A stretch of DNA of 61,448 nucleotides, taken from Candidatus Moraniibacteriota bacterium. GTDB lineage: Bacteria; Patescibacteriota; Minisyncoccia; Moranbacterales; GCA-2747515. This document shows, in pieces, positions 17,456 to 51,090 of this stretch; positions within the stretch are counted from its first letter, which is position 1, and every line of letters starts with the position of its first letter. The position numbers were made by a program, and so were the translations under genes. The stretch spans positions 1 through 61,448 of the forward strand of contig CAMZLB010000025.1 in NCBI GenBank assembly GCA_947311515.1, read 5' to 3'. The notes under the pieces are model-generated. The model ran no database searches. It worked only from the letters and a program-made list of their open reading frames with translations, and was not told the DNA's origin.

Positions 17456-17484
17456 TTTACATGCGTCAATTAACATGCTATTAT
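17456..17484 (+). promoter_or_regulatory. Promoter of cassette 1
   Basis: TTTACA, a 17-nt spacer, then TATTAT. Nearly identical to 19516..19544 and homologous to 21641..21669. The upstream block CTTAGATTTAAAA... is also shared by all three cassettes. Confidence 0.55.
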
Positions 17485-17490
17485 CTTATC

Positions 17491-17587
17491 AGGTTAGTTT
17501 TTTGATGTATTTAGCAATGGGCTTATACGCGACAGTGACTTAGTCACAAACTAATCTCAAAGAGCACTTTAACAAAAAGGATTAGCT
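17491..17587 (+). promoter_or_regulatory. Conserved structured 5' leader of cassette 1 (candidate cis-regulatory RNA and/or 12-codon uORF)
   Basis: Outer helix GGTTAGTTT (17492..17500) / AAACTAATC (17548..17556). Inner hairpin GTGAC-TTA-GTCAC (17535..17547). Conserved TGATGTATTTAG box. uORF at 17505..17543 (MYLAMGLYATVT*). SD AAGGA before the ATG at 17588. Confidence 0.45.
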
Positions 17588-18871: not shown

Positions 18872-18904
18872 AATCTGCCTAAACAGATCTTCAAAGATGT
18901 AGTT

Positions 18905-19351
18905 TTGCCATCTCCAGATGGAACAACTATACTAACTATGGAGGCTAACACAACTTATTTTGTGAAAGCTTCTATGGATCGCAGGTACCGACTGGAAGAG
19001 CACGTTTACCCTAATTACATTGGGCTTTTTTATCCAAATGGAGCATGTAGAGGAATGCCGTCTTTGCACTACCCCGCAGATAAACATGTCAAAAAGGAGT
19101 TTGGAGATGTCAAGTGGCGAAAACCATATGAGGCAGTATTAATAGCTCTCGTATGTACCGACAATGATGATGCTAAGCTGAAATGTGAAGTCCTATCTGA
19201 CAGAACAATCGCAATCAGAGGGAAAAAAGGGGAAAAGCTAAAGCTATCCCTAAATTTCCCAATAGAAAATGGTATATATGATAGAAACGAATATGCCAAA
19301 AAATGTTTTAGGGGTGGCTGGCTGATAACGGTCGAAAGCTCCAAGAATTAA
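18905..19351 (+). CDS. Cassette 1 'B' C-terminal domain (unknown ~140-aa domain), same frame as the preceding ORF
   Basis: LPSPDGTTILTMEANTTYFVKASMDRRYRLEEH...RGGWLITVESSKN is homologous to residues ~150-292 of the copy 3 B protein. No SD precedes either TTG 18905 or ATG 18938. Expression therefore needs TAG readthrough or SD-less initiation. Confidence 0.45.
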   Translation: MPSPDGTTILTMEANTTYFVKASMDRRYRLEEHVYPNYIGLFYPNGACRGMPSLHYPADKHVKKEFGDVKWRKPYEAVLIALVCTDNDDAKLKCEVLSDRTIAIRGKKGEKLKLSLNFPIENGIYDRNEYAKKCFRGGWLITVESSKN

Positions 19352-19354
19352 AAT

Positions 19355-19390
19355 AAGAGTAGATACATCGCTATCTACTCTTTTGATTTT
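19355..19390 (+). terminator. Intrinsic terminator of cassette 1
   Basis: Perfect 11-bp stem AAGAGTAGATA / TATCTACTCTT with loop CATCGC, then TTGATTTT. An identical hairpin follows all three cassettes. Confidence 0.7.
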
Positions 19391-19515
19391 GTGATATTTT
19401 TACAAAATTAACAATAAACTTGTCCCTAAATAAGATTTTTAATAGAAATAATCAGTACTTTTATTTCTTGTTTTCTGTTTTGTGTCTAAGATTTAAATAT
19501 TTATAATATAGATAC

Positions 19516-19544
19516 TTTACATGCGTCAATTACCATGATATTAT
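19516..19544 (+). promoter_or_regulatory. Promoter of cassette 2
   Basis: TTTACA, a 17-nt spacer, then TATTAT. Two substitutions relative to the cassette 1 promoter. Confidence 0.55.
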
Positions 19545-19550
19545 CTTATC

Positions 19551-19646
19551 AGGTTAGTTTTTTGATGTATTTAGCAATGGGCTTATACGCGACAGTGACT
19601 TAGTCACAAACTAATCTCAAAGAGCACTTTAACAAAAAGGACGCCT
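19551..19646 (+). promoter_or_regulatory. Conserved structured 5' leader of cassette 2
   Basis: Identical to the cassette 1 leader from the -10 element to the SD, by eye. Includes the same helix, hairpin and uORF (19565..19603). Confidence 0.45.
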
Positions 19647-20657
19647 ATGTTAGACATTCCTAAAATATCTATGATATTAAAATTAATTTTGATATCAGTT
19701 ATGATATTACTCATTCCAGAATATAAAAATATTTTTCTGGATCCGAATATAGATATAATAATATCTTTACTTGCAATTGTCATAATAATTCTATTGACTA
19801 TTAAATCATTAAAGGATTTCTATAGTATTATTGGACTAGAAACTAACGGTCTCAATTTAGGGATCATTTTTCCCCTGATAGTTCCTATAGAAACTGTGTT
19901 ATTAGTACACTCATTTCAAATAGTAGAGAATACTGATGTGCTATTGGCTATTGATTTGATAACTCTCGTACTTAGCGCTTTTGTAATATTTATGATCGAT
20001 TTTAGAAATTTCTTTCTTTTGGAGGAAAATAAGCAATTAACAATTCTCAAAAAAGGAGAGAAAATATCTATTTCAGGTAACCTTTATTTTGAAAGTCTGC
20101 CTATGCATATCATATACAAATATCGCAAAGGATTTTTATGCAAAGTAATAAATTTAGGAAAAAATGAAAAAGAAAAGATAAAGAAATTTTCCTTGCCTTG
20201 TATAAAAAAAGCTATGCTACTAACTATCGCAACAAAAACAAAGGAAGGTATAGAAAAAAAATATTCAGGCTTATCAGTAATGGATTTTTTCTTGAAAAAC
20301 ACGGAACTTACCAATAGAATTCTATTAAATGGTTCATTTTTCGAATCTCATCAAAGATATCACTTGCTACTTCAGGACAATTTGTATATAGATAGTGTAG
20401 TAAAACTATACGACAAACAACACCTTGATAAAAAAAATGTACCTAAAAGTAGGAAACTTAGTTGGTTTACACCAGAAATAGCTCTGGAGTATAAATTGCC
20501 TGTTTTTACAGACGAACAAGCCGACAATTTAATTTCTAATAATATAGGTACAAGTGAACTAGTAAATAATGGCTTGTTGAACAAGTTTTATGAAAACGGT
20601 TTTCAATTTATATATTTTATAATAGGACCTATGAAAGTTTCGGAAAATAATGAATAG
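19647..20657 (+). pseudogene. Cassette 2 'A' paralog with internal deletion of the SPFH-like N-terminal strands and a premature in-frame TAG (probable pseudogene or readthrough-dependent)
   Basis: Lacks ~33 codons present in copy 1 (VPTLHREQLTFMNKILAGKELSEGPSWWFPFVGDRN). A TAT-to-TAG change at 20655..20657 sits where copy 1 reads ...NNEYNGNS. The same frame stays open downstream. Confidence 0.5.
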
Positions 20658-20867
20658 GATGGTAACAGCGCCACCAATCCCGCACCCTCGTCGTCTAATA
20701 ATGGATTTTCAGAGGGACTCAGAAAGATTTTTACATGGATTAAAATGCTAATATTTCTTATCATTGTTTGGGTAATATGGTATTTTTTCAGTGATAATAC
20801 TGATTTCAGTAATAATTTCAGTTCTGATTTTAGTTCTAATTCTACTTCTAGTTCTAGTTCTAACTAG
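20658..20867 (+). other. In-frame open segment of cassette 2 (B-type TM anchor + Ser-rich linker) bounded by two TAG codons
   Basis: Translates as DGNSATNPAPSSSNNGFSEGLRKIFTWIKMLIFLIIVWVIWYFFSDNTDFSNNFSSDFSSNSTSSSSSN followed by TAG (20865..20867). Same frame as 19647 and 20937. Confidence 0.4.
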
Positions 20868-20936
20868 AATCTACCTAGACAACAGATCTTTAAAGACGTA
20901 GTTTTACCATCTCCAGATGGAACAACTATACTAACT

Positions 20937-21356
20937 ATGGAAGCTAACACAACTTATTTTGTGAAAGCTTCTATGGATCGCAGGTACCGACTGGAAGAGC
21001 ACTTTTACCCTAATTTCATTGGACTTTCTTATCCGAATGGAGCGTCTAACGGAATGCCGTCTTCGCTCTACCCAGTAGATAAACGTGTTAAAAAGGGGTT
21101 TGGAGATCTGATAAAGTGGAAAAAACCATATGAGGCTATATACACAGCACTCATATGTACCAACAATGACAATAGTACGGAATTGGAATGTGAAGTCCTA
21201 TCTGACAGAACAATCGCAATCAGAGGAAAAGAAGGGGAAAAGCTAAAGCTATCCATGAATTTTCCAATAGAAAATGGTCTATATAATAGAAACGAATATA
21301 CCAAAAAATACTTAAGGGGTGGCTGGCTGATCACAGTCGAAAGCTCCAAGAATTAA
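20937..21356 (+). CDS. Cassette 2 'B' C-terminal domain (unknown ~140-aa domain)
   Basis: MEANTTYFVKASMDRRYRLEEHFYPNF...RGGWLITVESSKN. Intact ORF, in frame with the upstream segments, no SD. Confidence 0.4.
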   Translation: MEANTTYFVKASMDRRYRLEEHFYPNFIGLSYPNGASNGMPSSLYPVDKRVKKGFGDLIKWKKPYEAIYTALICTNNDNSTELECEVLSDRTIAIRGKEGEKLKLSMNFPIENGLYNRNEYTKKYLRGGWLITVESSKN

Positions 21357-21359
21357 AAT

Positions 21360-21396
21360 AAGAGTAGATACATCGCTATCTACTCTTTTGATTTTT
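21360..21396 (+). terminator. Intrinsic terminator of cassette 2
   Basis: Same AAGAGTAGATA-CATCGC-TATCTACTCTT hairpin plus T tract. Confidence 0.7.
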
Positions 21397-21505
21397 GCAA
21401 CCTAAAAATTCAAACAAAAAAGATGAGCAGTAACTCATCTTTTTAAATTTAGAGCCAATCTACACAATAATCTTTGCAAGTGATTTGATAATTACTAGTG
21501 ATACA
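21397..21505. repeat. Duplication scar: copy of 23990..24098, including a second hairpin and a ~45-bp relic of the pilin gene 3' end
   Basis: TGCAACCTAAAAATTCAAACAAAAAAGATGAGCA.TAACTCATCTTTTTAAATTTAGAGCCAATCTACACAATAATCTTTGCAAGTGATTTGATAATTAC occurs at both places. At 24053+ it encodes the C-terminus (...IIKSLAKIIV*) of a minus-strand pilin. Confidence 0.7.
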
Positions 21506-21640
21506 ATACTATTTCATCAAAGAAGCCTAATTAAATCTAATTTTCTTATTAAATTTTAAGTTTTCAATAAAAATAATTAGCTCTATTCTTTTCCGTATTT
21601 CACTCTATATCTTAGATTTTAAAATTCAAAACATAAACAC

Positions 21641-21669
21641 TTGACTTATTTAAATTATTATGCTATCAT
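21641..21669 (+). promoter_or_regulatory. Promoter of cassette 3
   Basis: TTGACT, a 17-nt spacer, then TATCAT. Confidence 0.55.
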
Positions 21670-21674
21670 ATTTT

Positions 21675-21779
21675 TAGTTTAGTATTTAGTGATGTATTTA
21701 GAATGTTCTACTTACACACTTATAATTTATTATAAAACTAAACTAACTTTCTTTAACAATTGAATAAAAAGGATATAAA
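21675..21779 (+). promoter_or_regulatory. 5' leader of cassette 3 (diverged homologue of the cassette 1/2 leader)
   Basis: Outer helix TAGTTTAGT (21675..21683) / ACTAAACTA (21737..21745): different sequence, same architecture. Conserved GTGATGTATTTAG box. uORF at 21692..21763 (MYLECSTYTLIIYYKTKLTFFNN*). SD AAGGA before the ATG at 21780. Confidence 0.4.
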
Positions 21780-23069
21780 ATGAAATTTTTAGGAATTTTA
21801 TTAAGTATAGCAGCTCTAATATTTGGACTGCTACTAGGTTCAGAGATGTATGCTACGTCAAGTGATATTAGTATTACAACAATGATACTTGGAGACATTC
21901 TACTTTCTGGTTTCTTAGCAGTAAGCACAGTATCTACTCTCTATTTTACATATAAAATAGTTGAGTTAAGTTATAATGGCTTACTACTTGGAGCACTAAC
22001 TTCGTTATTGCTTACAATAGAAACAATAATCATTGTAAATACACTGTTTCCACTAGGACTGCTATTGAACACTGTGGTGTTCGTGTTGCTAGTAGTGTTT
22101 TTCTTTTTCCATGGATACCTGGAGATACCTAACCTCAATAAAGCGCAAATTTTTTTCATAGAGAAAACGTTACCGAGGGGCGAATTAGTGGATGGGCCTG
22201 CGTGGTTCTTCAACATCCCCTCTTTAATAGAGATTAGACTCTTTTTGATGGATGTTAGAACATTAGAACTCTTCAAGGGAGATCCTCTCTCAATATCCCA
22301 TGGGATGAGCTTCAAAACTTCACCTATAAAAGTGACATATAAGCTCAACAATTTAGAGCAGTATATCAAATTGGGTGCAGAAGCAAGAAAAGATTGGGAA
22401 AATTATTTAGTAGACAGTATCAGAAATGCTGCAATACTAATAATAAGTAGCAAAAGTGAAGAAGAACTAAATGAAGAGTATTCAGGTCTAGCATTACTCC
22501 TCATTATGGACTCATTAAAAATGTTCAAGAGAATTATCTTGAATGGAACTTATTTTGAGTCTCATCTAGAATATCCCATACTGAAAAGAGATGAAATGTA
22601 TGAGAAAAAGATACAGGACACATATGCAAATTTAGATGACTTTACAAAAGAGGAGAGTCAAAAAAACAAAATACATATCTTTTCAGATAAACAATGGACA
22701 ATGTTACTAGATTCCAAAAGTGAGGACAACCTACCCAATAGAGGGGTTTTGCATAAAAGCTCAGATATAGGCTTTACGTTGGTGGATATCACTTTTGGAA
22801 ACTTCACATTAGAGGATTCTCTACAAGCTGAAATCCTCAAGAAAAGAAGTGAAGGCCTCCAAAGAGAAGCAGAATTAGCTGACATAACAACACTGGAAAT
22901 GTTAGCTAAAAAAATAGCGTCTTTAGGAATTCCAATTGACAAGGCTACACAACTAGCCATGTTGCGTATGGATACACCAAACCTAAACTACAAAGTAACT
23001 GAAATTTTATCCACATCGGATAAAGTTGACCAAGTTATAGCAGCACTTATAGAAGGAAAAGGAGAATAA
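21780..23069 (+). CDS. Cassette 3 'A' protein: 4-TM N-terminus + SPFH/Band-7-like domain with coiled-coil tail (full-length form)
   Basis: 429 aa. Strings follow SPFH order: GPAWFFNIPSLIEIRLFLMDVRTLELF, IKVTYKLNNLEQYI, YLVDSIRNAAILII, IGFTLVDITFGNFTLEDSLQAEILKKRSEGLQREAELADI. Family call is by eye only. Confidence 0.6.
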   Translation: MKFLGILLSIAALIFGLLLGSEMYATSSDISITTMILGDILLSGFLAVSTVSTLYFTYKIVELSYNGLLLGALTSLLLTIETIIIVNTLFPLGLLLNTVVFVLLVVFFFFHGYLEIPNLNKAQIFFIEKTLPRGELVDGPAWFFNIPSLIEIRLFLMDVRTLELFKGDPLSISHGMSFKTSPIKVTYKLNNLEQYIKLGAEARKDWENYLVDSIRNAAILIISSKSEEELNEEYSGLALLLIMDSLKMFKRIILNGTYFESHLEYPILKRDEMYEKKIQDTYANLDDFTKEESQKNKIHIFSDKQWTMLLDSKSEDNLPNRGVLHKSSDIGFTLVDITFGNFTLEDSLQAEILKKRSEGLQREAELADITTLEMLAKKIASLGIPIDKATQLAMLRMDTPNLNYKVTEILSTSDKVDQVIAALIEGKGE

Positions 23070-23070
23070 A

Positions 23071-23949
23071 ATGATTTACTTAATAATGATGTTAATAATC
23101 ATATTTACGAACAAACCAAACTTTGGATTTGATTCTGTGTTTGAGGATCTTGGATTCAAAAAAGAGCTTGAGGAAGCGGAAAAAGCAAAAAAATCCGCAC
23201 CCTTGTGGTCTAGCAATATAACCAAAATAGCATCTGGATTTATAAAGGGATTAGCAAATCTTTTTCTGTGGATTGCAAAAATGCTAATGTACTTTGCTAT
23301 TGCTTGGGGAATATGGTATTTCTTCAGTCATACTGATTTTAGTTCTAACTTTAGTTCTAGTTCTAGTTCTAGTTCTAGTTCTAATTCTAGTTCTAATTCT
23401 AGTTCTAATTCTAGTTCTAATTCTAGTTCTAGTTCTAGTTCTAGTTTTAGCTCTAGTTCTTACCAGAATATACTTAGACAACAGATCTTTAAAGATATAG
23501 TTTTACCATCTCCAGATGGCACAACTATACTAACTATGGAAGCCAACACAACTTACATTGTAAAGGCTTCTATGGACAGAAGATACAGACTGGAAGAGCA
23601 CTTTGACCCTAATTTCATTGGACTACTTTATCCAAATGGAAAATCTAACGGGAGAAAAATTTCCTCATACCCAGCAGATAACTTTATCAAAAAGGGATTT
23701 GGAGATATAAAGTGGAGAAAACCATATGAAGCAGTATACATAGCACTCATATGTGTCGACAATGACGATGGTAAACTGGAATGTGAGGTCCTATCTGACA
23801 GAACAATCGCAGTTAAAGGAAAGAAAGAAGGAAAACTAAAACTATCCCTAAATTTCCCAATAGAGAATGGTATATATGATAGAAACGAATACCCAAAAAA
23901 ATATTTTAGAGGTGGCTGGCTAATCACAGTCGAAAGCTCCAAGAATTAA
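23071..23949 (+). CDS. Cassette 3 'B' protein: N-terminal hydrophobic segment, TM anchor, ~40-residue poly-Ser/Asn linker, unknown ~140-aa C-terminal domain
   Basis: 292 aa with a strong SD (AAGGAG) 7 nt upstream. The ATG lies 1 nt after the A stop. The C-terminal domain is homologous to 18905..19351 and 20937..21356. Confidence 0.65.
   Translation: MIYLIMMLIIIFTNKPNFGFDSVFEDLGFKKELEEAEKAKKSAPLWSSNITKIASGFIKGLANLFLWIAKMLMYFAIAWGIWYFFSHTDFSSNFSSSSSSSSSSNSSSNSSSNSSSNSSSSSSSSFSSSSYQNILRQQIFKDIVLPSPDGTTILTMEANTTYIVKASMDRRYRLEEHFDPNFIGLLYPNGKSNGRKISSYPADNFIKKGFGDIKWRKPYEAVYIALICVDNDDGKLECEVLSDRTIAVKGKKEGKLKLSLNFPIENGIYDRNEYPKKYFRGGWLITVESSKN
23341..23460 (+). repeat. Hexanucleotide microsatellite (AGTTCT / AGTTCTAATTCT)n encoding the poly-Ser(Asn) linker
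   Basis: About 20 consecutive 6-nt units read directly from the sequence. Both alternative-frame ORFs here (23284..23481 minus, 23294..23500 plus) are artefacts of the repeat. Confidence 0.9.
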
Positions 23950-23952
23950 AAT

Positions 23953-23989
23953 AAGAGTAGATACATCGCTATCTACTCTTTTGATTTTT
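23953..23989 (+). terminator. Intrinsic terminator of cassette 3
   Basis: Same 11-bp perfect hairpin plus T tract as after cassettes 1 and 2. Confidence 0.7.
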
Positions 23990-24008
23990 GCAACCTAAAA
24001 ATTCAAAC

Positions 24009-24038
24009 AAAAAAGATGAGCACTAACTCATCTTTTTA
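24009..24038 (-). terminator. Bidirectional hairpin terminator closing the minus-strand pilin array
   Basis: AAAAGATGAG-CACTAA-CTCATCTTTT flanked by A and T runs, 15 nt downstream of the pilin stop at 24053. Duplicated at 21416..21446. Confidence 0.6.
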
Positions 24039-24052
24039 AATTTAGAGCCAAT

Positions 24053-24679
24053 CTACACAATAATCTTTGCAAGTGATTTGATAATTACCAGCGATATAAG
24101 AGCTATAACTATACCTACAACTGCATATTTGATAGTGTTTTTGCCCATTTCTGCACGCTTTTCATCTCCTGTTGAAGTAATATATATAACCCCACCTACA
24201 ACTATCATGAGCACACTAAGACCTCCTATGAAACTCATGAGGGATTTGAGGACATTTAGTACTATTTCAGAAAGCGTTTTTGCAGCTACAGCTTCAGCTG
24301 GTACTATAGCAGGACTAACATTCATTACATCATATATCTCCTTGAGAAATGATGGAGCCGCAAACGCTAGTGAAACTCCTATGATAGCTGCCCATATAGC
24401 TCCCTTTGCCATACTCATACGCTTTTCATCGCCAGAAGATGTGATATATATAATACCGCCTATCACTATAAATACTATAGCTAGCACACCTATCATCATC
24501 TGAATAGTCTTCAAGATATTTGATAGTAATGCCTCTACAGTATCAAAGGCCAATGGATTTTCAAATTTTATTGGAGTTATTACTACTCCTTGTGCCCCAA
24601 CATCTTGTGGCATTATAAATGAAAAGGCTATAGTTAGTACGATTATAACTGGAAGAGATGTTTTGAATAAACTTTTCAT
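24053..24679 (-). CDS. Internally duplicated (double) TrbC/VirB2-like 'T4SS pilin' family protein
   Basis: Signal peptide (…FIMPQDVGAQG), then two repeats of the pilin unit. Each unit has a TM helix, GG(I/V)IYITS(S/T)GDEKR, and a second TM helix. Confidence 0.65.
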   Translation of the reverse strand: MKSLFKTSLPVIIVLTIAFSFIMPQDVGAQGVVITPIKFENPLAFDTVEALLSNILKTIQMMIGVLAIVFIVIGGIIYITSSGDEKRMSMAKGAIWAAIIGVSLAFAAPSFLKEIYDVMNVSPAIVPAEAVAAKTLSEIVLNVLKSLMSFIGGLSVLMIVVGGVIYITSTGDEKRAEMGKNTIKYAVVGIVIALISLVIIKSLAKIIV

Positions 24680-24700: not shown

Positions 24701-25108
24701 TTATATTGCTCCGAGAGCTCTAGATACTACATAAACTATGACATAAGCAAGAAGTGCCAAGATTAATCCATATATCGCTGTAGTAAATATCCTCTTCGCC
24801 GTGTCAACTCTGCTTTCATCAGATTCAGAAGTTATATACATCAAACCACTTACAATTATCATAAGTGTTGCAAGACCTCCTAGAAATTGCAATATAAAAC
24901 TTATAATCTTTACGATGACTGTTATTATTTTATCATCAGTGGAGATACCCTTTGGACCTTGAGCATGATTTGGATCTGGTAAGCAAACTCCGTCTACCAG
25001 TGCGTATCCAGGTGTACTAGTACAAGTAAAGGCGCTTGTGTATTGAAAATTTCCCCACAGTGTCAATGCAAATACAAACACTAGCATAGATATAAATTTT
25101 ATTTTCAT
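24701..25108 (-). CDS. TrbC/VirB2-like 'T4SS pilin' family protein
   Basis: Signal peptide, Cys pair (CTSTPGYALVDGVC), TM helix, SGLMYITSESDESRVDTAK, then a second TM helix. Confidence 0.65.
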   Translation of the reverse strand: MKIKFISMLVFVFALTLWGNFQYTSAFTCTSTPGYALVDGVCLPDPNHAQGPKGISTDDKIITVIVKIISFILQFLGGLATLMIIVSGLMYITSESDESRVDTAKRIFTTAIYGLILALLAYVIVYVVSRALGAI

Positions 25109-25184
25109 ATTTTTTATTTAATTTTTATCCATTATCACTCAGATACTTACTTTAGTATACATCAACATATACATAAAACACAAA

Positions 25185-25580
25185 TTACATACCTACAACT
25201 TTTGATACAATATTTACTATAACCCAAGCAAGCAAAACAATGATAAGTCCATATATTACCTGTATAATCATAGTCTTTGCCATTTCAATACGCTTTTCAT
25301 CTCCACCTGATGTTATATATATAATTCCAGCAACGATAAGATACACAACAGCCAACGCAGCCACGAAGCTTAATATAAATTTCATAACTTTCACTATAAC
25401 ACCACTAACCGTAGGACTTGTTTCCTTTCCAACTTTTGTGACTTTTAATCCATCCTCAAAACTAGGAAAACTTTCTGCATTAGCATGCCCTACAAAAGCA
25501 ATTTCACATCCATCAGTAGAGACTGCAAAAACTCCTATAATCAATAAAAGAAAAAAACCTATTTTCATCAAAGATTTCAT
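25185..25580 (-). CDS. TrbC/VirB2-like 'T4SS pilin' family protein
   Basis: Start taken at the ATG at 25580 (MKSLMKIGFF...). Motif AGIIYITSGGDEKRIEMAK lies between two TM helices. Confidence 0.65.
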   Translation of the reverse strand: MKSLMKIGFFLLLIIGVFAVSTDGCEIAFVGHANAESFPSFEDGLKVTKVGKETSPTVSGVIVKVMKFILSFVAALAVVYLIVAGIIYITSGGDEKRIEMAKTMIIQVIYGLIIVLLAWVIVNIVSKVVGM

Positions 25581-25631
25581 ATTTTTATTTTTTAACCTTA
25601 TATTTTTATTATACACGCTTTTGTGCAAAAT

Positions 25632-25662
25632 AAAAACTCTAGTCAATAAGTCTAGGGTTTTT
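25632..25662 (-). terminator. Intrinsic terminator between pilin paralogs
   Basis: Minus strand: AAAAACCCTAG-ACTTATTGA-CTAGAGTTTTT, then ATTTT. Part of a repeated intergenic block. Confidence 0.55.
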
Positions 25663-25767
25663 AGATATATTTTAAAAGCTATTTCAAATCCTACCTTTTT
25701 GTTGAAATATAATAATTCAACTAAAAGTAAGTATTTTCAAAAAACTATTAATAATATTTAACACTTA

Positions 25768-26142
25768 CTACGGACCTATAACTACATTTGATACGATATT
25801 TACAATTACCCATCCAAGTAATGCAATTATAAGTCCTATGATTGCATATATTATCCATTTCTTTGCTGTTTCTACTTTTCCTTCATCTCCTCCTGATGTT
25901 ATGTACATAATTCCAGCAATAAGTATGACAAGAACAGCCAAAGCAGCTAGAAATGTCAAAAAAAATGAAATAACCTGCCGTATAATACTAATCACCGTCC
26001 TTGTTCCTCCTTTATCATTATATTGTGCTACCGCAAGTCCTCCTTTATAATCAGCATTCAAAGATCCAGCTACTGCATACAAAGGATTTATCAAAAAAGC
26101 TATTGCAAGAGCGATAATAGCATTGTTTTTGATTGTATTCAT
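25768..26142 (-). CDS. TrbC/VirB2-like 'T4SS pilin' family protein (tandem paralog)
   Basis: GGAGGTG SD upstream of the ATG at 26142 (MNTIKNN...). Motif AGIMYITSGGDEGKVETAKKWIIYAIIGLIIALLGWVIVNIVS. Confidence 0.7.
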   Translation of the reverse strand: MNTIKNNAIIALAIAFLINPLYAVAGSLNADYKGGLAVAQYNDKGGTRTVISIIRQVISFFLTFLAALAVLVILIAGIMYITSGGDEGKVETAKKWIIYAIIGLIIALLGWVIVNIVSNVVIGP

Positions 26143-26209
26143 ACTATTCACACCTCCTCTCTTTTAATTTTTATAACTTGCATTCATTATACACGCTTTT
26201 GTGCAAAAT

Positions 26210-26240
26210 AAAAACTCTAGTCAATAAGTCTAGAGTTTTT
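26210..26240 (-). terminator. Intrinsic terminator between pilin paralogs (second copy)
   Basis: Perfect 11-bp stem AAAAACTCTAG / CTAGAGTTTTT with a 9-nt loop, inside the repeated intergenic block 26188..26353. Confidence 0.55.
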
Positions 26241-26345
26241 AGATATATTTTAAAAGCTATTTCAAATCCTACCTTTTTGTTGAAATATAATAATTTAACT
26301 AAAAGTAAGTATTTTCAAAAAACTATTAATAATATTTAACACTTA

Positions 26346-26720
26346 CTACGGACCACCTATAACTAGAGTTGATACGATATTTACAATTACCCATCCAAGT
26401 AGTGCAATTATAAGTCCTATGATTGCATACATTATCCAATTCTTTGCTGTCTCTACTTTTCCTTCATCTCCTCCTGATGTTATATACATAATTCCAGCAA
26501 CAAGTATGACAAGAACAGCCAAAGCAGCTAGAAATGTCAATAAAAATGTAATAATTTTCAAAATAATTGTAGGAATATCAGTATTTGTATTATCAGTATA
26601 TTTTACTTTATCTCTTCCTGTTTTAAATGTAGCATCTAGACCTGCTTGAGCACTAGCTAAGCTTGGAACTACTAGGATTGTAAACAACAATGCTAGGCTG
26701 GTATTTTTGATTATGTTCAT
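26346..26720 (-). CDS. TrbC/VirB2-like 'T4SS pilin' family protein (tandem paralog)
   Basis: GGAGGTG SD upstream of the ATG at 26720 (MNIIKNT...). The C-terminal half is almost identical to 25768..26142. Confidence 0.7.
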   Translation of the reverse strand: MNIIKNTSLALLFTILVVPSLASAQAGLDATFKTGRDKVKYTDNTNTDIPTIILKIITFLLTFLAALAVLVILVAGIMYITSGGDEGKVETAKNWIMYAIIGLIIALLGWVIVNIVSTLVIGGP

Positions 26721-27136
26721 TTTAGCATACACCTCCTCTCTTTTATTTTTTTAAATCTCATATTTATTGTATATCTTTTTTAAGAAATAGTCAACCACAT
26801 TTTTAATATATAGCAAATATATAACTAATCATATATTAGAATTCACCACGTTATTTGTATTTTTTTTAAGATAAAAATAACAATTAATTATTCTATTATA
26901 TTTCTATATGAGACTTAGCTATATTGTAATAATTTACAAATCTTATTATTTTTTTTATGATTTCTATTTTTAAATTCAGTTTTTTGTACTATATTTTTAA
27001 TAAAGTTCCAATAACTTACTCATTTTATCTGTAAATTCTTTTATGTATTTTTATAAATTTTTATTCAGTACTAGCGCCCCTATATTTTAAAGATAAACTG
27101 TAAATATTAACAAAAAAAATTAATAAACTAAATCTA

Positions 27137-38069: not shown

Positions 38070-39314
38070 TTATTTTGGAGCTCTCCAAGCCTCCAATGTA
38101 GTAACACCCTTTTCTAGAGGTAGTGCATTCTTTCTATACCTATAAAAAAATTTTATTTTATTAGTATCTCCTCCTTTAAAGTATTGTACTACTTCTTCGT
38201 ATTTTTTCATATATCTAGGTAGCTCATAAAAAACTATTTTAGGACTTGTGTCCAAGCTACAATATGTCTGAGCGTATTTCTTATTTATTGAATAAATATA
38301 TGCTCCATTTCTGAATTTACATTCATAAACTGGCACAGAACCTTTTGCACTCTTTCTGAGTCCATAAAATGCAAACTTACCACCACTACTCTTTTTAGAG
38401 CTATATCTACTATTTCCCCCTTCAATAGAAACATAAATTTTTATTATATCTCTCTTTCTAAATTTTTTATTAACACTTACCCTTTTTTTTAAATCAAGAG
38501 CCTTACCTACAAGTGCCTTAACCAATGGTCTTCTAGTATGTTCTTTAATATTTGATTTACTACCTTTTTTTCGAAATTTCTTTTTCAACTTCTTTTTTTT
38601 TCGAAATTTCTTTTTCAACTTATTTTTTTTTCGAAATTTCTTTTTCAACTTATTTTTTTTTCGAAGTTTCTTTTTCAACTTATTTTTTTTTCGAAGTTTC
38701 TTTTTCAACTTCTTTTTGGTAACTTTTTTATTTATAGGATAATTTGAGCCGTTGCTCATTATTTTACTTGTATCCAAATGATGATTATCAGCTGCATTAC
38801 TATACTCACTGTAACTATTTTTGTTTTTGTGTACTGAAATATTATTATTAATAATATCTCTAACCAACACTATTTGAGAGAGCTTTTTATTTAGTTCTTT
38901 AATTTTTTTGGAGTTAATATCCATTATAACTCCAAATAATTCTACTCGATAAGTCTCTACGTATAACACTTTCTCAGGAAGACAGATACTAAGCATACTC
39001 TTGCCATATCCATTTGTCCATTTAACTGCCTTTATACTAGGCATTTTATCCAGAATCTCTGAAAACTCTGAACTAGCAAAGACCTTAAACTTGCCATTAC
39101 CACCCATATTTGAAATATCAAAGTCTAGTGAGTGGTTACACGAATCTAATTGTGCATTTTTTGAGATTGGCCTAATTGCTGCAGCTGTACTATTTATCTT
39201 AAAAACTCTTTCAAGATAAATGAATTTTTGATTTGATGAAGGGTTTTTTATAACACAACCATTCAAAAAAAACATCAGGCTTACTATTGTGAACAAAGTA
39301 TACTTATTTACCAC
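38070..39314 (-). CDS. Predicted lipoprotein with a central poly-Lys/Arg tandem-repeat tract
   Basis: Lipobox FFLNGC near the N-terminus (GTG start). Central tract is KKKLRKKNKLKKKLRKKNKLKKKFRKKNKLKKKFRKKKKLKKKFRKK. No recognisable family. Confidence 0.55.
   Translation of the reverse strand: MVNKYTLFTIVSLMFFLNGCVIKNPSSNQKFIYLERVFKINSTAAAIRPISKNAQLDSCNHSLDFDISNMGGNGKFKVFASSEFSEILDKMPSIKAVKWTNGYGKSMLSICLPEKVLYVETYRVELFGVIMDINSKKIKELNKKLSQIVLVRDIINNNISVHKNKNSYSEYSNAADNHHLDTSKIMSNGSNYPINKKVTKKKLKKKLRKKNKLKKKLRKKNKLKKKFRKKNKLKKKFRKKKKLKKKFRKKGSKSNIKEHTRRPLVKALVGKALDLKKRVSVNKKFRKRDIIKIYVSIEGGNSRYSSKKSSGGKFAFYGLRKSAKGSVPVYECKFRNGAYIYSINKKYAQTYCSLDTSPKIVFYELPRYMKKYEEVVQYFKGGDTNKIKFFYRYRKNALPLEKGVTTLEAWRAPK
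38571..38720 (-). repeat. Five tandem 30-bp repeats (coding, 10-aa K/R-rich unit)
   Basis: Unit TCGAA(A/G)TTTCTTTTTCAACTT(A/C)TTTTTTTT read five times in head-to-tail order. Confidence 0.9.
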
Positions 39315-45738: not shown

Positions 45739-46935
45739 TTACTTTTTTTTCAAACTCTTTTTAATTTCTATATAAGCTAATCTAAACGATTTACCATCAT
45801 TTACTAAATCATAAACATCTTCAGTAACAAATAAGTCTTTAGTCATAGCTTTCCTTAAATTTTCTTTATTAAAAATTAAATTTTCAGTAACCAATGTCAA
45901 TACTTCAATAATTTCATTTAAATTATCCACTTGTTCTACAAAAATTTCCTTCGTAAGTTGAACATCTCTATTATATCCAGATATAAGTTGGATACATATA
46001 TTTTGCAATTCAGCTTGAGCTGAAAAATATCTATTCATCCTACCTCTTGCAATTTCTAGTACATCATAATTTCTTTTCTGAGGCATTATTGAACTTCCTG
46101 TAGTAAAATTCTCTGGTAATGATACAAACTCAAATTCTTGCATAGTAAACAAAAGCATATCATTTACAAATCTAGACAAAATTAAAATTGAAGGTGCATA
46201 TGTTTGTAAAAATTGATTTTCGAAATGCCCCCTAGAAATTCCACAATACATCGGGTTTCTTTGCACTTTTTTAAATCCCAGTTCATTACTTGTAAAATCT
46301 TGATTATTGTCAAAATTTGTAATTCCAAATCCACTAGCTGATCCCAGGGGTGACTGATTTAATAACTCATCCAGTGCTTCAAAAAATGGTTTTTGATCAC
46401 TGAGTGCAGCAGAAAAACTTCCAAGCCACATAAAGACATCAGATGGCATTGCTTTTTGTGCGTGAGTATATCCTGGCATTTTTAGATTTCTATTATTTTT
46501 TGCTACAGAATTAAACACTTTTTGTAAATTGTCTAGCTTTTGAACAATTTTTTTAGATTCCTCTTTCATATACAATCTAAGCATTACTAAAGCTTGATCA
46601 TTTCTACTCCTTCCAGTATGAATCTTTTTTCCGATCTCTCCATACTTTTCTGTCAAAAACTGCTCGATTGCAGTATGTCCATCTTCCTGTTCTTGAGTTA
46701 TATCAAATTTTCCTTGCTCCCAAAGTTCTAAAATTTCATCCAATCCTTTTATTGCATTTTTATAATCTGCATCTGATAGTATCTTTTTTTCTTTTAACAT
46801 CTTTGCATGAGCCTTTGAAGCTTTTACATCGTACGACAATAATTTTCTATCAAGCAAATAATCATTTCCTATTGTAAATTTCTCCACAACAGGATGTAAT
46901 CCATTGTCTATTTCCCATAATTTCTTTTTTGTCAT
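45739..46935 (-). CDS. argH: Argininosuccinate lyase (short form)
   Basis: Fumarate-lyase signature TGSSIMPQKRNYDVLE, plus HTGRSRNDQ. Confidence 0.85.
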   Translation of the reverse strand: MTKKKLWEIDNGLHPVVEKFTIGNDYLLDRKLLSYDVKASKAHAKMLKEKKILSDADYKNAIKGLDEILELWEQGKFDITQEQEDGHTAIEQFLTEKYGEIGKKIHTGRSRNDQALVMLRLYMKEESKKIVQKLDNLQKVFNSVAKNNRNLKMPGYTHAQKAMPSDVFMWLGSFSAALSDQKPFFEALDELLNQSPLGSASGFGITNFDNNQDFTSNELGFKKVQRNPMYCGISRGHFENQFLQTYAPSILILSRFVNDMLLFTMQEFEFVSLPENFTTGSSIMPQKRNYDVLEIARGRMNRYFSAQAELQNICIQLISGYNRDVQLTKEIFVEQVDNLNEIIEVLTLVTENLIFNKENLRKAMTKDLFVTEDVYDLVNDGKSFRLAYIEIKKSLKKK

Positions 46936-46962: not shown

Positions 46963-48222
46963 TTATTTTTTAAAATCAAATGAATTATAAGCAGTTTTTT
47001 GTGCTAAATTCCATATTTCTATAAATCCTGCAGAAGAATTCTGGTTAAATTTTGAATTTTTATCAAATGTTGCTAAACTCTCATCAAATAATGAATATGG
47101 AGAATCAAGTGAAACTATAGTGCAATTTCCTTTATATAGCTCAACTTGAACATTTCCTGTAACCTTTTTATTTTGAGAATCTTGATATGCAATAATATGT
47201 CTCATCACAGGATCAAACCACTTAGCAGCATACGCAAGATATGCCCATTTTTGATCTATTAAAGTCTTAAATTCATTCTCTTCTCTAGTTGATACAAGCA
47301 TTTCAAGCTTTTTGTGAGCTGAAACAAGAATATGTGCTGCTGGATTTTCGTATATTCCACGCACTTTAAGCCCTACAAATCTATCCTCTATAAGATTAAA
47401 ATATCCAACACCATGACTTGCTCCAATAGTATTACATTTACTCACAATTTTTGAAAGTTTCATTTTTTCTCCATTAACAGCAACAGGAATACCTTCTTTA
47501 AATTCTATATCTATTATTTCACTTTCATTTTTTGCCTGTTTTTGTGTTTTACACCACTTCAATATATTTTCTATTGGTGGCACAAGTCTAGGGTCCTCTA
47601 TTTCTCCTCCTTCTCCTGTATTTCCCCACATATTCTCATCATAAGAATATGGACTTTTAGATGTTTGAATTACTGGAATATTATTTTTCCTTGCATATTC
47701 AATCTGTTCATTTCTACCCATTGACCATTCTCTAACTGGAGCTATAGTTTTAATTTTTGGATTTAATGTGGTTATATAACCCTCAAATCTCACCTGATCA
47801 TTTCCTTTCCCTGTACAACCATGTGCTATAACTTCACAATTATACTTTTTTGCCATTTTTACAGCTATTTCTGATATTATGACTCTACCAAGTGGAGTAG
47901 AAAGTGCATAACCTCCTTGATAATCAGCATTAGCCTTTATTGCACTAGATAAAAGATCATCTGCAAATTCCTCTTTTGCATCATAAATAACTGCGTCACT
48001 AGCTCCTAATTTTATAGCCTTCTCTTTTATAATATCTAAATCATCAGCTGTTTGTCCTATATCAATTGTTAATGCTATAACCTCAGACTTATATTCATCC
48101 TGAATCCACTTTAGCATTGTAGAAGTATCTAATCCTCCCGAATACAATAATAAACATTTTTTAAATTCTCCTTTTTTTGCTTCATGTGAAGCAATTTTCT
48201 TATAACTAGTTACTGATTTCAT
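46963..48222 (-). CDS. argG: Argininosuccinate synthase
   Basis: LLYSGGLDTS ATP-PPase motif and GCTGKGNDQVRFE. Confidence 0.9.
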   Translation of the reverse strand: MKSVTSYKKIASHEAKKGEFKKCLLLYSGGLDTSTMLKWIQDEYKSEVIALTIDIGQTADDLDIIKEKAIKLGASDAVIYDAKEEFADDLLSSAIKANADYQGGYALSTPLGRVIISEIAVKMAKKYNCEVIAHGCTGKGNDQVRFEGYITTLNPKIKTIAPVREWSMGRNEQIEYARKNNIPVIQTSKSPYSYDENMWGNTGEGGEIEDPRLVPPIENILKWCKTQKQAKNESEIIDIEFKEGIPVAVNGEKMKLSKIVSKCNTIGASHGVGYFNLIEDRFVGLKVRGIYENPAAHILVSAHKKLEMLVSTREENEFKTLIDQKWAYLAYAAKWFDPVMRHIIAYQDSQNKKVTGNVQVELYKGNCTIVSLDSPYSLFDESLATFDKNSKFNQNSSAGFIEIWNLAQKTAYNSFDFKK

Positions 48223-48242
48223 AATATTATAATTTATCTAAT

Positions 48243-48383
48243 AAAAAACCCACTTTAATAAAAAGTAGGCGAAATTCAACAAAACAAAAACGCCCGTCTA
48301 TATGCGACGTGGAAACAAACCCTTAATCATTGTATTTCGCTTATTCATAATTCTATTATACAGTTAATTCTCCAAAATGTAAA
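48243..48383 (-). promoter_or_regulatory. argG promoter plus leader with a 16-codon Arg-codon uORF and alternative hairpins (candidate transcription attenuator)
   Basis: Minus strand: TTTACA (48383..48378), a 17-nt spacer, then TATAAT (48360..48355). uORF at 48348..48298 (MNKRNTMIKGLFPRRI*). Terminator CCTACTTT/AAAGTGGG followed by TTTTTT (48269..48243). Details are given in the findings. Confidence 0.45.
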
Positions 48384-48407
48384 TAAAAGACCTTTTACAA
48401 GAGTGCT

Positions 48408-48556
48408 TTAAGGAAATACTGCAAAACTAATTATTAGTCAAAATTAAAAAATAAATTTAAAATATATTTTCAGTAAGCGATATTTGTAAGGTTTTTGTAA
48501 ATTGTATTTTGAGAAAAATAACATTTTTTAAAGTTTTGCAAACATTACTTCCTTAA
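48408..48556 (-). repeat. MITE-like element M2 (~149 bp) with terminal inverted repeats
   Basis: Termini are TTAAGGAAATAC ... TTACTTCCTTAA. Its reverse complement aligns along its full length with 14148..14300. Confidence 0.55.
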
Positions 48557-48678
48557 CCTCATCAACAATTCCGTCTATATCTATATATAGTTCTTTTACA
48601 CCAGTTTCCACATTTACTATGAATACCGCTATATGAATCACTATTTTTTTTAATTACTATAGCAACTTTTTTACCATC

Positions 48679-48978
48679 TCAAGTAAAATTTCCTTTACCT
48701 TTTCCAAATGTTATATCATCATATCTACTAAGATCCTCTACCTGTGTAATTGTATCATTTGCTACATGCCATTTTCCTATTGCTTTACTACTAGTATCAA
48801 CATAATGCATATATTCTGACTCAGTCATACTCCACCTAACTCTACTTCCAGGTTTATCTCTAGTAAATAAAACTTCATAAGTTTCTCCATCTAACCATAC
48901 ATCTTGAGAGATTCTATCAAGAAAAATCATACCTTCATCATTATTCCACGGTTGTCTTTTTGAATATCCATATCTCAA
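48679..48978 (-). CDS. Hypothetical protein (possibly a gene remnant)
   Basis: 99-codon ORF that starts only at a TTG. There is no in-frame ATG before residue 17 and no SD. Ends in TGA. No recognisable motif. Confidence 0.25.
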   Translation of the reverse strand: MRYGYSKRQPWNNDEGMIFLDRISQDVWLDGETYEVLFTRDKPGSRVRWSMTESEYMHYVDTSSKAIGKWHVANDTITQVEDLSRYDDITFGKGKGNFT

Positions 48979-49046
48979 TTGTTCATCTGGACATACTTCT
49001 CCTAAAATATATATACCTTACATCATAAAACTAATTAATTACAGTA

Positions 49047-49361
49047 TTATTTTTTAATTATTTTTATACCTCTTATACCAAAAATAATCAAACAAATAAT
49101 AAATATTTTCAAAAAATAATGACTATATAAATCCATGAAATCTCTGGTCATCGGTGTTATATTACCAAAAATAAGATGAATTATTATACTAAAAGGTAAT
49201 GTTAAAAATACCCAATTTAATCTAGGAACTTTAATATTAATTTTTAAAAATATTTCTGATAATCTATTAGAAAGTAAATATATTCCTCCTAAAGCTAAAA
49301 TTAAATCAAAAATAGCATAATTAAAAATAGTAACTTGTCTCAAAAATTCTAATACATTCAT
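49047..49361 (-). CDS. Hypothetical small membrane protein (3-4 TM)
   Basis: 104-aa ATG ORF with hydrophobic segments. No family recognised. Confidence 0.4.
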   Translation of the reverse strand: MNVLEFLRQVTIFNYAIFDLILALGGIYLLSNRLSEIFLKINIKVPRLNWVFLTLPFSIIIHLIFGNITPMTRDFMDLYSHYFLKIFIICLIIFGIRGIKIIKK

Positions 49362-49674
49362 ACTTTTATCATTATTTTACTCACAATCTCTTTTTAACTT
49401 TTTAAAAAAGTCATGTTTTATCTATAAAATATTAATTCCTATTTACGTACTTGTTTAAGAAATCTGCTTATACTACTTATATAGAATACATACTTTAATT
49501 TAAAAACTGTATAAACTCTGAACAAAAAATAAAAACTACCTACACTTTACAAATTTATTTTTACTCACACAGAGCGTGGAAAATCGTTGCAAAATCAACC
49601 CTTTGTGCGCAAAATGCGACTTTTGCAGAACTTAGTTCTGCTCGCAATTCTGCCGTTTCTAACAAAATCAAAGG

Positions 49675-49759
49675 CGGAAGGGACAGGATTTGAACCTGCG
49701 GAACATTGCTGCTCACACGCTTTCCAAGCGTGCGCTTTCAACCACTCAGCCACCCTTCC
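49675..49759 (-). tRNA. tRNA-Ser (anticodon GGA), class II with long variable arm; CCA not encoded
   Basis: Minus strand: GGAAGGGTGGCTGAGTGGTTGAAAGCGCACGCTTGGAAAGCGTGTGAGCAGCAATGTTCCGCAGGTTCAAATCCTGTCCCTTCCG. It folds into a 7-bp acceptor stem (GGAAGGG/CCCTTCC), an anticodon stem CACGC/GCGTG with loop TTGGAAA, and a T arm GCAGG-TTCAAAT-CCTGT. Confidence 0.9.
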
Positions 49760-49893
49760 ATAATTATTACTATAACATAGTTTAAACAAAAATTGAAAAT
49801 AAGTTATTTTAATCTATAATCAGTGATTTATTTCATTCTTCTTCTGCAAGTTTCCATAAGAACTATTTGTTAGAATTACTATCATTATTTACT

Positions 49894-51090
49894 TTATTGA
49901 TAATTTTTATTAGTTTTTTCTATCCATTTACCTTTTTCTTTGATAAGAGCTACCAATTCATCTATTGCCTCATCTTCTGGCACACCTCTTTTTATTAATT
50001 CCTTTTTATAATATAAACTTATTTCTCCAGGTTTTCCACCCACATAACCAAAGTCCGCATCAGCCATTTCCCCAGGTCCATTGACAATGCAACCCATTAT
50101 AGCAATTCTGACACCTTTCAGATGACCCATTATCTCCTTTATTTTATTTGTGACAATCTCTATATCATAAAGTGTTCGCCCACAAGATGGACATGAGATA
50201 AATTCTGTTTTTGTTATTCTCCTCCTAGTTGCTTGCAAAATAGAATAGCAAACTGGAATTTCTTTTTCTGGCTCTTCTGTGAGAGAGACTCTTACGGTAT
50301 CTCCTATTCCATCAAGTAATAAAGTACCAATTCCTATAGTAGATTTTGCTCTTCCATCTTCTTTATTTCCTGCTTCAGTAACACCTAAATGTATTGGATA
50401 ATCCATTCCCTCTTTTTCCATTCTTTCATCTAATAATCTATTTGCATTTATCATCATGATAGGATCTGATGACTTTAGCGCTACAACCATTTGATGAAAA
50501 TCATGCTTTGCAAAAATTCTTAAATATTCCATAGCACTCTCTACCATACCTTCTGCTGTATCTCCATATTTACTCAAAACTCTATCCGATAGAGAACCAT
50601 GATTTGCACCTATTCTTATTGGCTTTCCTGCTTCTTTCAGTGCCTTTATAAAATCAATAAGACCTTCTTCTACTCTTTTTAATTCTTGTTCATATTCTTC
50701 ATCAGTAAGGATGTTATCTTTTTGTAACTTTTTATCAAATAAATTTCCTGGATTTATCCTTATTTTATCCGCCCACTTAAGAGCTTCATAAGCTGCAGCT
50801 GGCACAAAGTGAATATCTGCAATAAGTGGTATGTTGCAATTATATTTTTCTTTTAAAAGTTTTTTTATTTCCCCTATTGCTTTTGCATGCTTGGGTGTCG
50901 GTGCTGTTATTCTAACTAATTCAGAACCCTCATCCACACAACGAAGAACTTGTAAAACTGTTGCGTTGATATCCATAGTATCTGTATTTGTCATAGTTTG
51001 GACACGAATCGGCTCATCTCCTCCAATTCCCACACTACCAACATTTACAACTCTTGATTTTCGTCTTTTGCTCTGAACTTCTTTAAACAT
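49894..51090 (-). CDS. ispG: 4-hydroxy-3-methylbut-2-en-1-yl diphosphate synthase
   Basis: Fe-S cysteine motifs FISCPSCGRT and GCIVNGPGEMADADFG. Confidence 0.9.
   Translation of the reverse strand: MFKEVQSKRRKSRVVNVGSVGIGGDEPIRVQTMTNTDTMDINATVLQVLRCVDEGSELVRITAPTPKHAKAIGEIKKLLKEKYNCNIPLIADIHFVPAAAYEALKWADKIRINPGNLFDKKLQKDNILTDEEYEQELKRVEEGLIDFIKALKEAGKPIRIGANHGSLSDRVLSKYGDTAEGMVESAMEYLRIFAKHDFHQMVVALKSSDPIMMINANRLLDERMEKEGMDYPIHLGVTEAGNKEDGRAKSTIGIGTLLLDGIGDTVRVSLTEEPEKEIPVCYSILQATRRRITKTEFISCPSCGRTLYDIEIVTNKIKEIMGHLKGVRIAIMGCIVNGPGEMADADFGYVGGKPGEISLYYKKELIKRGVPEDEAIDELVALIKEKGKWIEKTNKNYQ

Follow-up and report, generated by a model that had tools for sequence, protein, structure and literature searches.

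A candidate arginine-codon leader-peptide attenuator upstream of argG-argH in a Candidatus Moraniibacteriota bacterium and related Patescibacteria

Described attenuators and the leader of argG

The classical leader-peptide attenuators are those for Trp, His, Phe, Leu, Thr and Ile/Val (trpL, hisL, pheL, leuL, thrL and ilvL), and the textbook control of the arg genes is exerted by ArgR/AhrC together with ARG boxes. In fungi, the uORF (upstream open reading frame) of arg-2/CPA1 encodes the arginine attenuator peptide (AAP), which is conserved, halts the ribosome at its stop codon under high free arginine, and acts on translation and mRNA decay in these eukaryotes. Here we describe the leader of argG, the gene for argininosuccinate synthase, in a 61,448-nucleotide stretch of DNA from Candidatus Moraniibacteriota bacterium (assembly GCA_947311515.1, contig CAMZLB010000025.1, positions 1 to 61,448), the whole of which is referred to below as the window. 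A preliminary description had proposed that this leader is a trp-style Arg-codon attenuator with alternative 1:2, 2:3 and 3:4 pairings, and the proposal is supported by an arrangement conserved in about 40 loci and by covariation of both helices. We consider it likely that the leader controls argG-argH by ribosome-mediated transcription attenuation in response to charged tRNA-Arg.

Leader-peptide attenuators described later include a His leader before Bacillus hisS (PMC2965389) and a Cys leader before cysS (PMC8632094), and exchange between T-box and leader peptide at a single gene is a known evolutionary pattern (PMC2965389). Leader ORFs with Arg codons have also been reported, namely orf34 upstream of speF in Salmonella (PMC6386406) and rbfL in S. 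aureus (PMC13009471), and a review-type statement lists arginine as T-box-regulated and not as attenuator-regulated (PMC1262725). In searches of full-text literature and Rfam 15 no Arg leader-peptide attenuator of arginine biosynthesis genes was found; the preliminary description had called such a device unusual.

The promoter, uORF, Arg codons, segments 2 and 3 and terminator were all recovered on the minus strand, 5' of argG (46963..48222, minus strand; match to profile NF001770 of 492 bits), exactly where the preliminary description had placed them. The promoter scan gives a -35 hexamer TTTACA (48378..48383; TTTGCA in the same place in the closest relative, L001) and, after a 17-nt spacer, a -10 hexamer TATAAT (48355..48360) that lies 6 nt before the ATG of the uORF. 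Its score of 11/12 is unsurpassed in 47500..50000 and is equalled there by one site only, on the plus strand at 49793..49820, so that it stands alone on the argG strand. A second possible promoter next to argG, with TATAAT 3 nt before the ATG, was rejected: it has no -35 hexamer, is not kept in L001 and is unreported by the scan. The uORF, identified by ORF reading, comprises 16 codons and a TAG (48298..48348), encodes MNKRNTMIKGLFPRRI* and lies 75 nt before argG. Its codons 14 and 15 are the tandem Arg codons CGT CGC (48304..48309), which also belong to segment 1.

Folding places these Arg codons in a 1:2 hairpin, CCACGUCGC-AUAUA-GACGGG (48293..48312, -6.1 kcal/mol), in which they are paired with the 5' part of segment 2, and a U-rich tract UUUUUGUUUUG (48280..48290) follows directly 3' of it. 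Segment 2, GGGCG (48291..48295; followed by TTTTTGTTTTG in DNA letters), is the 5' strand of the antiterminator, and segment 3, CGCCU (48267..48271), is its 3' strand, overlapping 3 bp (CCU) at the foot of the terminator stem. The intrinsic terminator 3:4 (48243..48270) was found both by folding and by an independent terminator scan; it has the stem CCUACUUU / AAAGUGGG, the loop UUAUU and a U6 run, corresponding in the DNA to the arms CCTACTTT (48269..48262) and AAAGTGGG (48256..48249) and to TTTTTT (48248..48243). Its stem of 8-9 bp has an energy of -7.7 kcal/mol (-9.7 with one more pair on each side), and 20 nt separate the end of the T-run from the argG ATG (48222). Every sequence-level hallmark of the trpL/hisL/pheL class is present in this leader, and nowhere else on either strand of the 61 kb window is a terminator preceded by an ATG-uORF that has tandem Arg codons.

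The leader family in Patescibacteria

To examine the conservation of the leader we collected, with the ArgG protein as query, 80 loci each from species-representative genomes and from metagenomes, most of them metagenome-assembled genomes (MAGs) of Patescibacteria, or the Candidate Phyla Radiation (CPR); loci are designated here by L numbers. The closest relative, L001, has an ArgG 84% identical to that of the window, and a metagenome scan for closer relatives found none nearer, only strain-level variants in contigs of epibiont metagenomes. By inspection, a short ATG-uORF with 2-4 tandem Arg codons is present in 31 of 81 argG upstream regions, the window included. An automatic count of tandem Arg codons in ATG-uORFs of 10-35 codons gives 36 of 81. 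The same count yields 5 for the reverse strand and 6.9 ± 2.6 (maximum 17) after dinucleotide shuffling. Three consecutive Arg codons occur in 20 of the 81 loci against 0.6 in shuffles, and any other amino-acid doublet in at most 11. Thus, lack of conservation of the uORF or its Arg codons in orthologous leaders, which the preliminary description had named as grounds for abandoning the idea, is the opposite of what is seen. At least 15 additional members of the family were found among the metagenome contigs, and in all an Arg-uORF, a terminator and an exclusive antiterminator are kept before argG in about 40 Patescibacteria-type loci whose sequences are almost wholly different. The MAGs that bear these leaders are labelled Gracilibacteria, Peregrinibacteria/Peribacteria, Saccharibacteria and Magasanikbacteria.

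The Arg codons are of the CGN type in most leaders and AGA/AGG in the genomes of 23-25% GC (L043, L052, L057 and L059). This genome-dependent swap indicates that what is conserved is arginine in frame, and not a GC-rich nucleotide motif. Outside the Arg run there is no sequence conservation among the peptides (e.g. MNILSTMILVSLFPRRF in L001, MIIYNYINTNLRRRLWA in L004, MNVWILVSQLRRRRQ in L026, MSNYSIQANTRRRSPRISGGCPCNC in L036 and MLNNISIIRRRRLVRNSH* in L043), their length varies between 14 and 29 residues, and 1-17 codons separate the run from the stop. Gene finders miss these short uORFs, none being called in L161. Of 28 leader-bearing loci checked, 19 have argH directly 3' of argG and 2 more have it on the opposite strand. 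Hairpins of the 1:2 type are also seen in L001, L014, L023, L026, L029, L043 and L059. Several loci show extra leader elements, either some 40-165 nt before argG (L013, L017, L092 and L096) or after the attenuator terminator (L018/L097 and L031); these consist of a second small ORF rich in Arg codons, MRNLRNRRFQSK, or of a second hairpin with a T-run. Where such elements follow a first attenuator, they may provide tandem control.

A terminator is found in 30 of the 31 leaders. To compare the alternative folds we folded, in 30 leaders, only the RNA left uncovered by a ribosome, with shuffled spacers as the control. When the first Arg codon occupies the A site (free RNA from Arg1+13), the segment following the Arg codons pairs with the 5' arm of the terminator at a median of -15 kcal/mol (median z -3.0; 23 of the 30 leaders below -2); strong members such as L036 and L043 have antiterminators of -20 to -24 kcal/mol. 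With the ribosome at the stop codon (stop+13) the median is -0.5 kcal/mol, and the terminator probability is 0.8-1.0. In most subfamilies the helix persists to Arg1+19; it is lost at Arg1+16 in the window, L001, L004, L023 and L035. In leaders of the window type the model therefore predicts that antitermination would require a stall at the first Arg codon, and the later Arg codon(s) would lie in segment 1, beneath the stalled ribosome, as in the classical scheme. L001, L004 and L023 share this minimal design, with an overlap of 2-3 nt at a GC-rich terminator foot.

Covariation was assessed in an alignable Saccharibacteria-type subfamily of 11 sequences (alignment A2), in which the RNAalifold consensus is the antiterminator. 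In this helix 92.7% of the cells are paired and 6 of 10 pairs are changed on both sides; only 0-2 of 500 shuffles are as good, and sliding the partners by 1-3 columns lowers pairing to 39-54%. In the terminator of the same alignment 83% of the cells are paired and 3 pairs are changed on both sides, columns 76-81 being common to both helices. The stem covariation that the preliminary description had wished to see checked is thus found in both overlapping helices, which indicates that two mutually exclusive helices are both maintained. The subfamily of the window itself is too divergent for MAFFT: in alignment A1 the arms fell out of register, and RNAalifold recovered from A3 the 1:2 hairpin only. 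We therefore relied there on folding of single sequences against shuffles and on a manual comparison of the window with L001. Three terminator pairs differ on both sides between the two (A-U in the window against G-C in L001 at pair 4, C-G against A-U at pair 5, and U-A against C-G at pair 6), and in the antiterminator a C-G pair becomes U-A and the G.U pair becomes A-U, such that AGGUGG of L001 pairs with CCACCU. A strain variant about 2.4% diverged, from contigs of metagenome runs X5/X6, carries G48295A, by which the G.U pair with U48267 becomes A-U, as in L001. In its peptide Gly10 is replaced by Asp and Ile16 by Thr, and the codons of RR are untouched; its promoter hexamers are unchanged, the spacer being altered at 48375, 48373 and 48363. 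The region 48243..48294, including the terminator, is unchanged in this variant, against 7 changes in 48295..48375.

In other lineages of Patescibacteria a T-box (RF00230) stands before argG. The clearest cases are L072 and L127 (105.7 bits), and weaker ones were found in L006, L016, L062, L088 and L089 (42-73 bits; expectation values (E) of 4e-6 to 3e-14). In five of the alignments (L072, L127, L088, L006 and L016) the specifier reads GAA-CGC, i.e. Arg, the specifiers of L062 and L089 being unread. The T-boxes are located some 60-400 nt before argG, and the MAGs that contain them bear the labels of Uhrbacteria, Jacksonbacteria and related groups. As most fall below the Rfam gathering cut-off (42-73 against 93 bits), they are divergent and would be missed by standard annotation. 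The occurrence of Arg-specifier T-boxes at the same gene implies that argG in this group is under tRNA-Arg charge control through two interchangeable devices. No T-box matched in the window at the gathering threshold, or in 48150..48700 at E up to 10, and the window leader has neither a Stem I with a specifier loop nor the T-box sequence AGGGUGGNACCGCG. Rfam 15 as a whole, applied to the window at the gathering threshold and to the leader at E up to 10, returned only a tRNA-Ser and chance-level matches, the best of the latter being anti-hemB (21 bits against a cut-off of 49.5). Taken together, these observations lead us to favor, if by a modest degree, the view that there is a previously undescribed, phylum-wide family of Arg-sensing attenuators on argG-argH across Patescibacteria, with leaderless uORFs lacking a Shine-Dalgarno (SD) motif, and interchangeable with Arg-specifier T-boxes.

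Proposed mechanism and competing explanations

The order of events that we infer is as follows. Transcription would begin at or next to the AUG of the 16-codon uORF, and a ribosome would load on the 5' end of this leaderless message. The 1:2 hairpin and the U-tract would then be transcribed with the ribosome trailing; a pause of the polymerase at this point is speculation. When Arg-tRNA is scarce, the ribosome would halt with the first Arg codon, CGU (48309..48307), in the A site, hiding segment 1 and leaving GGGCG free to pair with CGCCU. This pairing would remove the terminator foot, namely 3 bp including both G-C pairs, and permit read-through into argG-argH. When Arg-tRNA is plentiful, the ribosome would reach the UAG and cover segment 2, so that 3:4 forms and transcription terminates 20 nt before argG; the terminator is predicted to form also if the leader is not translated. 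In the fold of the untranslated leader a long-range helix joins 48340..48327 with 48282..48269, and the terminator is kept with a probability of 0.88. Directly after the 1:2 hairpin the leader shows a G-rich segment 2, a U-run and a G (GGGCGUUUUUG; 48280..48295 in the window), and a U-run followed by a G after segment 2 is also present in L001, L004, L014, L018, L023, L026 and L035. This conserved motif after a hairpin resembles a hairpin-assisted pause site of RNA polymerase, and a pause there could synchronize polymerase and ribosome. The 1:2 hairpin itself would serve as an anti-antiterminator and might also be a pause hairpin.

Sigma-70-like promoters lie directly before the uORFs, and in about half of the 31 leaders the end of the -10 hexamer is 6-12 nt from the ATG, the spacing being 6 nt in both the window and L001. 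An SD-like motif is present in 1 of the 31. The preliminary description had listed the missing SD and the ATG 6 nt after the -10 hexamer as caveats; both are traits of the family. Together, the lack of SD and the short distance suggest that the uORFs are probably leaderless, and transcription is predicted to start at the AUG or no more than about 2 nt from it. The organism itself seldom employs SD: among the 40 genes of the window SD-like 4-mers precede 7. The positions 3-10 nt ahead of start codons show a mild excess of -10-like hexamers (1.75 per position, against 1.02). Both regulatory codons are minor ones, the Arg codons of the window genes including 12.5% CGT, 0.9% CGC and 62% AGA.

The family-level claim is strong, but the window copy appears to be among the weakest members, and its efficient switching is uncertain. 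In it the antiterminator GGGCG/CGCCU has 5 bp including a G.U pair and an energy of -7.0 kcal/mol (core helix -5.1), which is available with free RNA from Arg1+13 and falls to 0.0 with free RNA from stop+13. It covers 3 of the 8 nt of the terminator 5' arm, i.e. the 3 foot pairs including both G-C pairs. A number of points weigh against the attenuator interpretation, several of them concerning this copy. The -7.0 kcal/mol compares with a shuffle level of -4.0 (z -1.5), and 14 of 200 spacer shuffles equal it; among the 30 analyzed leaders only L052 (-6.2) has a weaker antiterminator. The window by itself is thus weak evidence, its antiterminator not being significant alone, and the caveat of the preliminary description about short helices holds for it. 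A ribosome on the first Arg codon leaves the two ensembles at almost equal energy (antiterminator -9.26, terminator -9.34 kcal/mol), and the equilibrium probability of the terminator drops only from 0.98 to 0.78; the alternative-structure energies that had been called for are accordingly favorable in the family, yet close to balanced in the window. With free RNA from Arg1+16, as in a stall on the second Arg codon, CGC, the rarer one, the value is -2.1 kcal/mol and the antiterminator is lost, which implies that regulation would hinge on kinetics and on a first-codon stall. The window has just two tandem Arg codons. The folding used a fixed ribosome footprint (assumed to be +13), by which an antiterminator strand starting at or beyond +13 is partly built in, and since the loci are phylogenetically related the locus counts are not counts of independent events. 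Leader transcripts were sought in RNA runs and no read covers the leader: one metatranscriptome gave low-depth contigs on argG only (47841..48215), and not a single read came from three large 2026 transcriptome runs that bear the same organism label.

The weakness of this copy raises the alternative that the window element is a decayed or non-functional member of the family, allowing constitutive partial termination or read-through before argG. The near-balanced ensembles, the second-weakest antiterminator of the 30, indistinguishable from shuffles and lost at the second Arg codon, and the presence of two Arg codons against up to four in relatives all point in that direction. However, L001, L004 and L023 have the same minimal design with its small overlap at the terminator foot, the changes between the window and L001 are compensatory in both helices, and the X5/X6 variant keeps or strengthens the 2:3 pairing, with the segment from 48243 to 48294 conserved amid changes on its 5' side. 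Moreover, once CCU at the foot is sequestered, the leftover hairpin ACUUU/AAAGU amounts to only -0.8 kcal/mol. We therefore regard decay as unlikely. An ordinary promoter and a hairpin with a T-run arising by chance in AT-rich DNA, together with a spurious ORF and some other control of argG such as an ArgR-type repressor, would be a different way to account for the window data, in which the whole-leader fold (z -1.45) and the antiterminator are each within about 1.5 standard deviations of shuffles; promoter-like hexamers, too, are common in DNA of 27-30% GC (22 against 16.8 expected). The comparative data (Arg-codon enrichment, fold z-scores and covariation) are strongly opposed to this, and the combination of elements is the only one of its kind in 61 kb. 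The check for ARG boxes and ArgR suggested in the preliminary description likewise gives it no help. ARG boxes, 18-bp operators (TNTGAATWWWWATTCANW) that mostly come in tandem and overlap the promoter, are not enriched in the window at up to 3 mismatches (156 against 142 ± 16 expected), although the search used the E. coli consensus, which may not suit this lineage, and is uninformative in AT-rich DNA. None overlaps the promoter at 48355..48383, the nearest being at 48425..48442 and 48457..48474 with 3 mismatches each. A scan of ten small window proteins revealed none that resembles ArgR, a sample with little bearing on the rest of the genome. Chance is the least probable of the explanations considered, and we regard it as very improbable.

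It is also conceivable that the uORF acts through its peptide or through the general speed of translation rather than through charging of tRNA-Arg. In the former version the ribosome would be arrested by the positive charge of the nascent RR(R) chain, or by free arginine binding in the exit tunnel (compare fungal AAP, TnaC and SpeFL), and in the latter the leader would report overall ribosome availability. The Arg run is indeed near the C-terminus and stop in many leaders (RRI*, RRF*, RRRP* and RRRR*), and an arrest at the stop codon would likewise cover segment 2 and favor termination. Nevertheless, known ligand-sensing arrest peptides have conserved residues, and these peptides have, outside the Arg run, neither a common sequence nor a common length; the distance of the run from the stop also varies widely. 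The Arg-specifier T-box that sister lineages have at argG senses tRNA charging, and the geometry of the leaders fits an Arg-codon stall leading to antitermination. This explanation thus appears improbable, and attenuation through stalling at the Arg codons remains our preferred interpretation of the window leader and its relatives.

Genomic setting and comparison with known systems

On the strand of argG the gene order is argG, argH, gdh, proA, proB and proC, with gaps of 27, 61, 91, 0 and 2 nt, and no convincing terminator was seen between any of these genes. ArgH (argininosuccinate lyase; 45739..46935, minus strand, 27 nt after argG) is a short form of 398 residues that matches positions 8-383 of the 455 of TIGR00838, the last ~70 residues being absent. 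As L001, L004, L023 and others have the short form too, it is characteristic of the lineage rather than an artefact of truncation. Just 5' of the leader promoter, 48481..48523 is a short multi-copy repeat, present once in the window; in three epibiont metagenomes its word depth is 36-68 against 4-8 in the flanks, 5-10 times as high, and many different contigs meet there. The stops of the 40 long ORFs of the window are 27 TAA, 12 TAG and 1 TGA. Recoding of TGA was considered, given the many relatives labelled Gracilibacteria and the single TGA stop, and was rejected: TGA is absent in frame but abounds out of frame (316 and 788 occurrences), which marks it as a rarely used stop and not a recoded one. 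In addition, rpoB and rpoC are intact, and the uORF in any case ends in TAG. Elsewhere in the window, 24701..26732 contains tandem paralogous small genes with type IV secretion system (T4SS)/TrbC-type pilin domains (24701..25108, 25185..25646 and repeats to ~26700), and a unit of about 2 kb, which includes serine-rich (AGT TCT)n tracts at ~20800 and 23320-23470, is present three to four times in 17400..24100. Within the ORF 38070..39314 (minus strand), six tandem copies of the 30-nt unit TTTTTTTCGAAATTTCTTTTTCAACTTATT (38535..38747) give rise to a repetitive Lys/Glu-rich protein segment.

If the view of a phylum-wide family is correct, it would imply that epibionts with reduced genomes run arginine salvage purely by cis-acting sensors of tRNA-Arg charge, with no ArgR repressor, and that ribosome-mediated attenuation can work with 70S initiation at a 5'-terminal AUG. 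An Arg-codon attenuator would add a further amino acid to the leader-peptide mechanism, for an amino acid whose textbook control is by a repressor. It would also be among the first concrete mechanisms of gene regulation for Patescibacteria, a huge and mostly uncultured group with few recognizable regulators. The swapping of leader peptide and T-box would here take place at one gene inside one phylum, and the apparent leaderless start of the uORFs would offer a natural test case for SD-less coupling of transcription and translation. A covariance or pattern model of the leader would improve CPR annotation and flag arginine-responsive operons.

Among known systems, ArgR/AhrC shares with the proposed attenuator the outcome that arginine biosynthesis genes are off when arginine is plentiful, but ArgR is a protein repressor that acts on operator DNA and senses free arginine. 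The T-box (RF00230), like the window leader, stands before argG, has tRNA-Arg charging (CGC specifier) as its signal and uses a terminator/antiterminator switch; unlike the window leader, it binds uncharged tRNA directly and needs no translation. The fungal AAP is likewise encoded by an upstream ORF that regulates an arginine biosynthetic gene in response to arginine, whereas in the window family only the Arg codons are conserved and the predicted output is termination of bacterial transcription. In orf34/speF and rbfL, as in the model for the window, the speed of the ribosome over Arg codons reports the arginine supply and alters the structure or accessibility of the downstream mRNA. These two systems, however, control polyamine synthesis or a biofilm regulator and not arginine biosynthesis, and rbfL operates on translation by occlusion of a ribosome binding site, whereas the intrinsic terminator of the window indicates transcription attenuation.

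The closest resemblance is to the classical attenuators, which similarly combine a short uORF containing tandem cognate codons, a 1:2 hairpin that holds those codons, and a 2:3 antiterminator that excludes a 3:4 terminator just before the first biosynthetic gene. In them, as in the model put forward here, segment 2 is free while the ribosome stands on the regulatory codons and is covered once it is at the stop. Leaders of the window type differ from the classical ones in their very short helices and 3-nt terminator overlap, and they have no sequence similarity to known leader families. The window leader further differs in its amino acid, arginine, in its Patescibacteria (CPR) host and in its SD-less, seemingly leaderless uORF. 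It would thus represent a new amino-acid specificity, that for Arg, in a new phylum, probably with a leaderless uORF.

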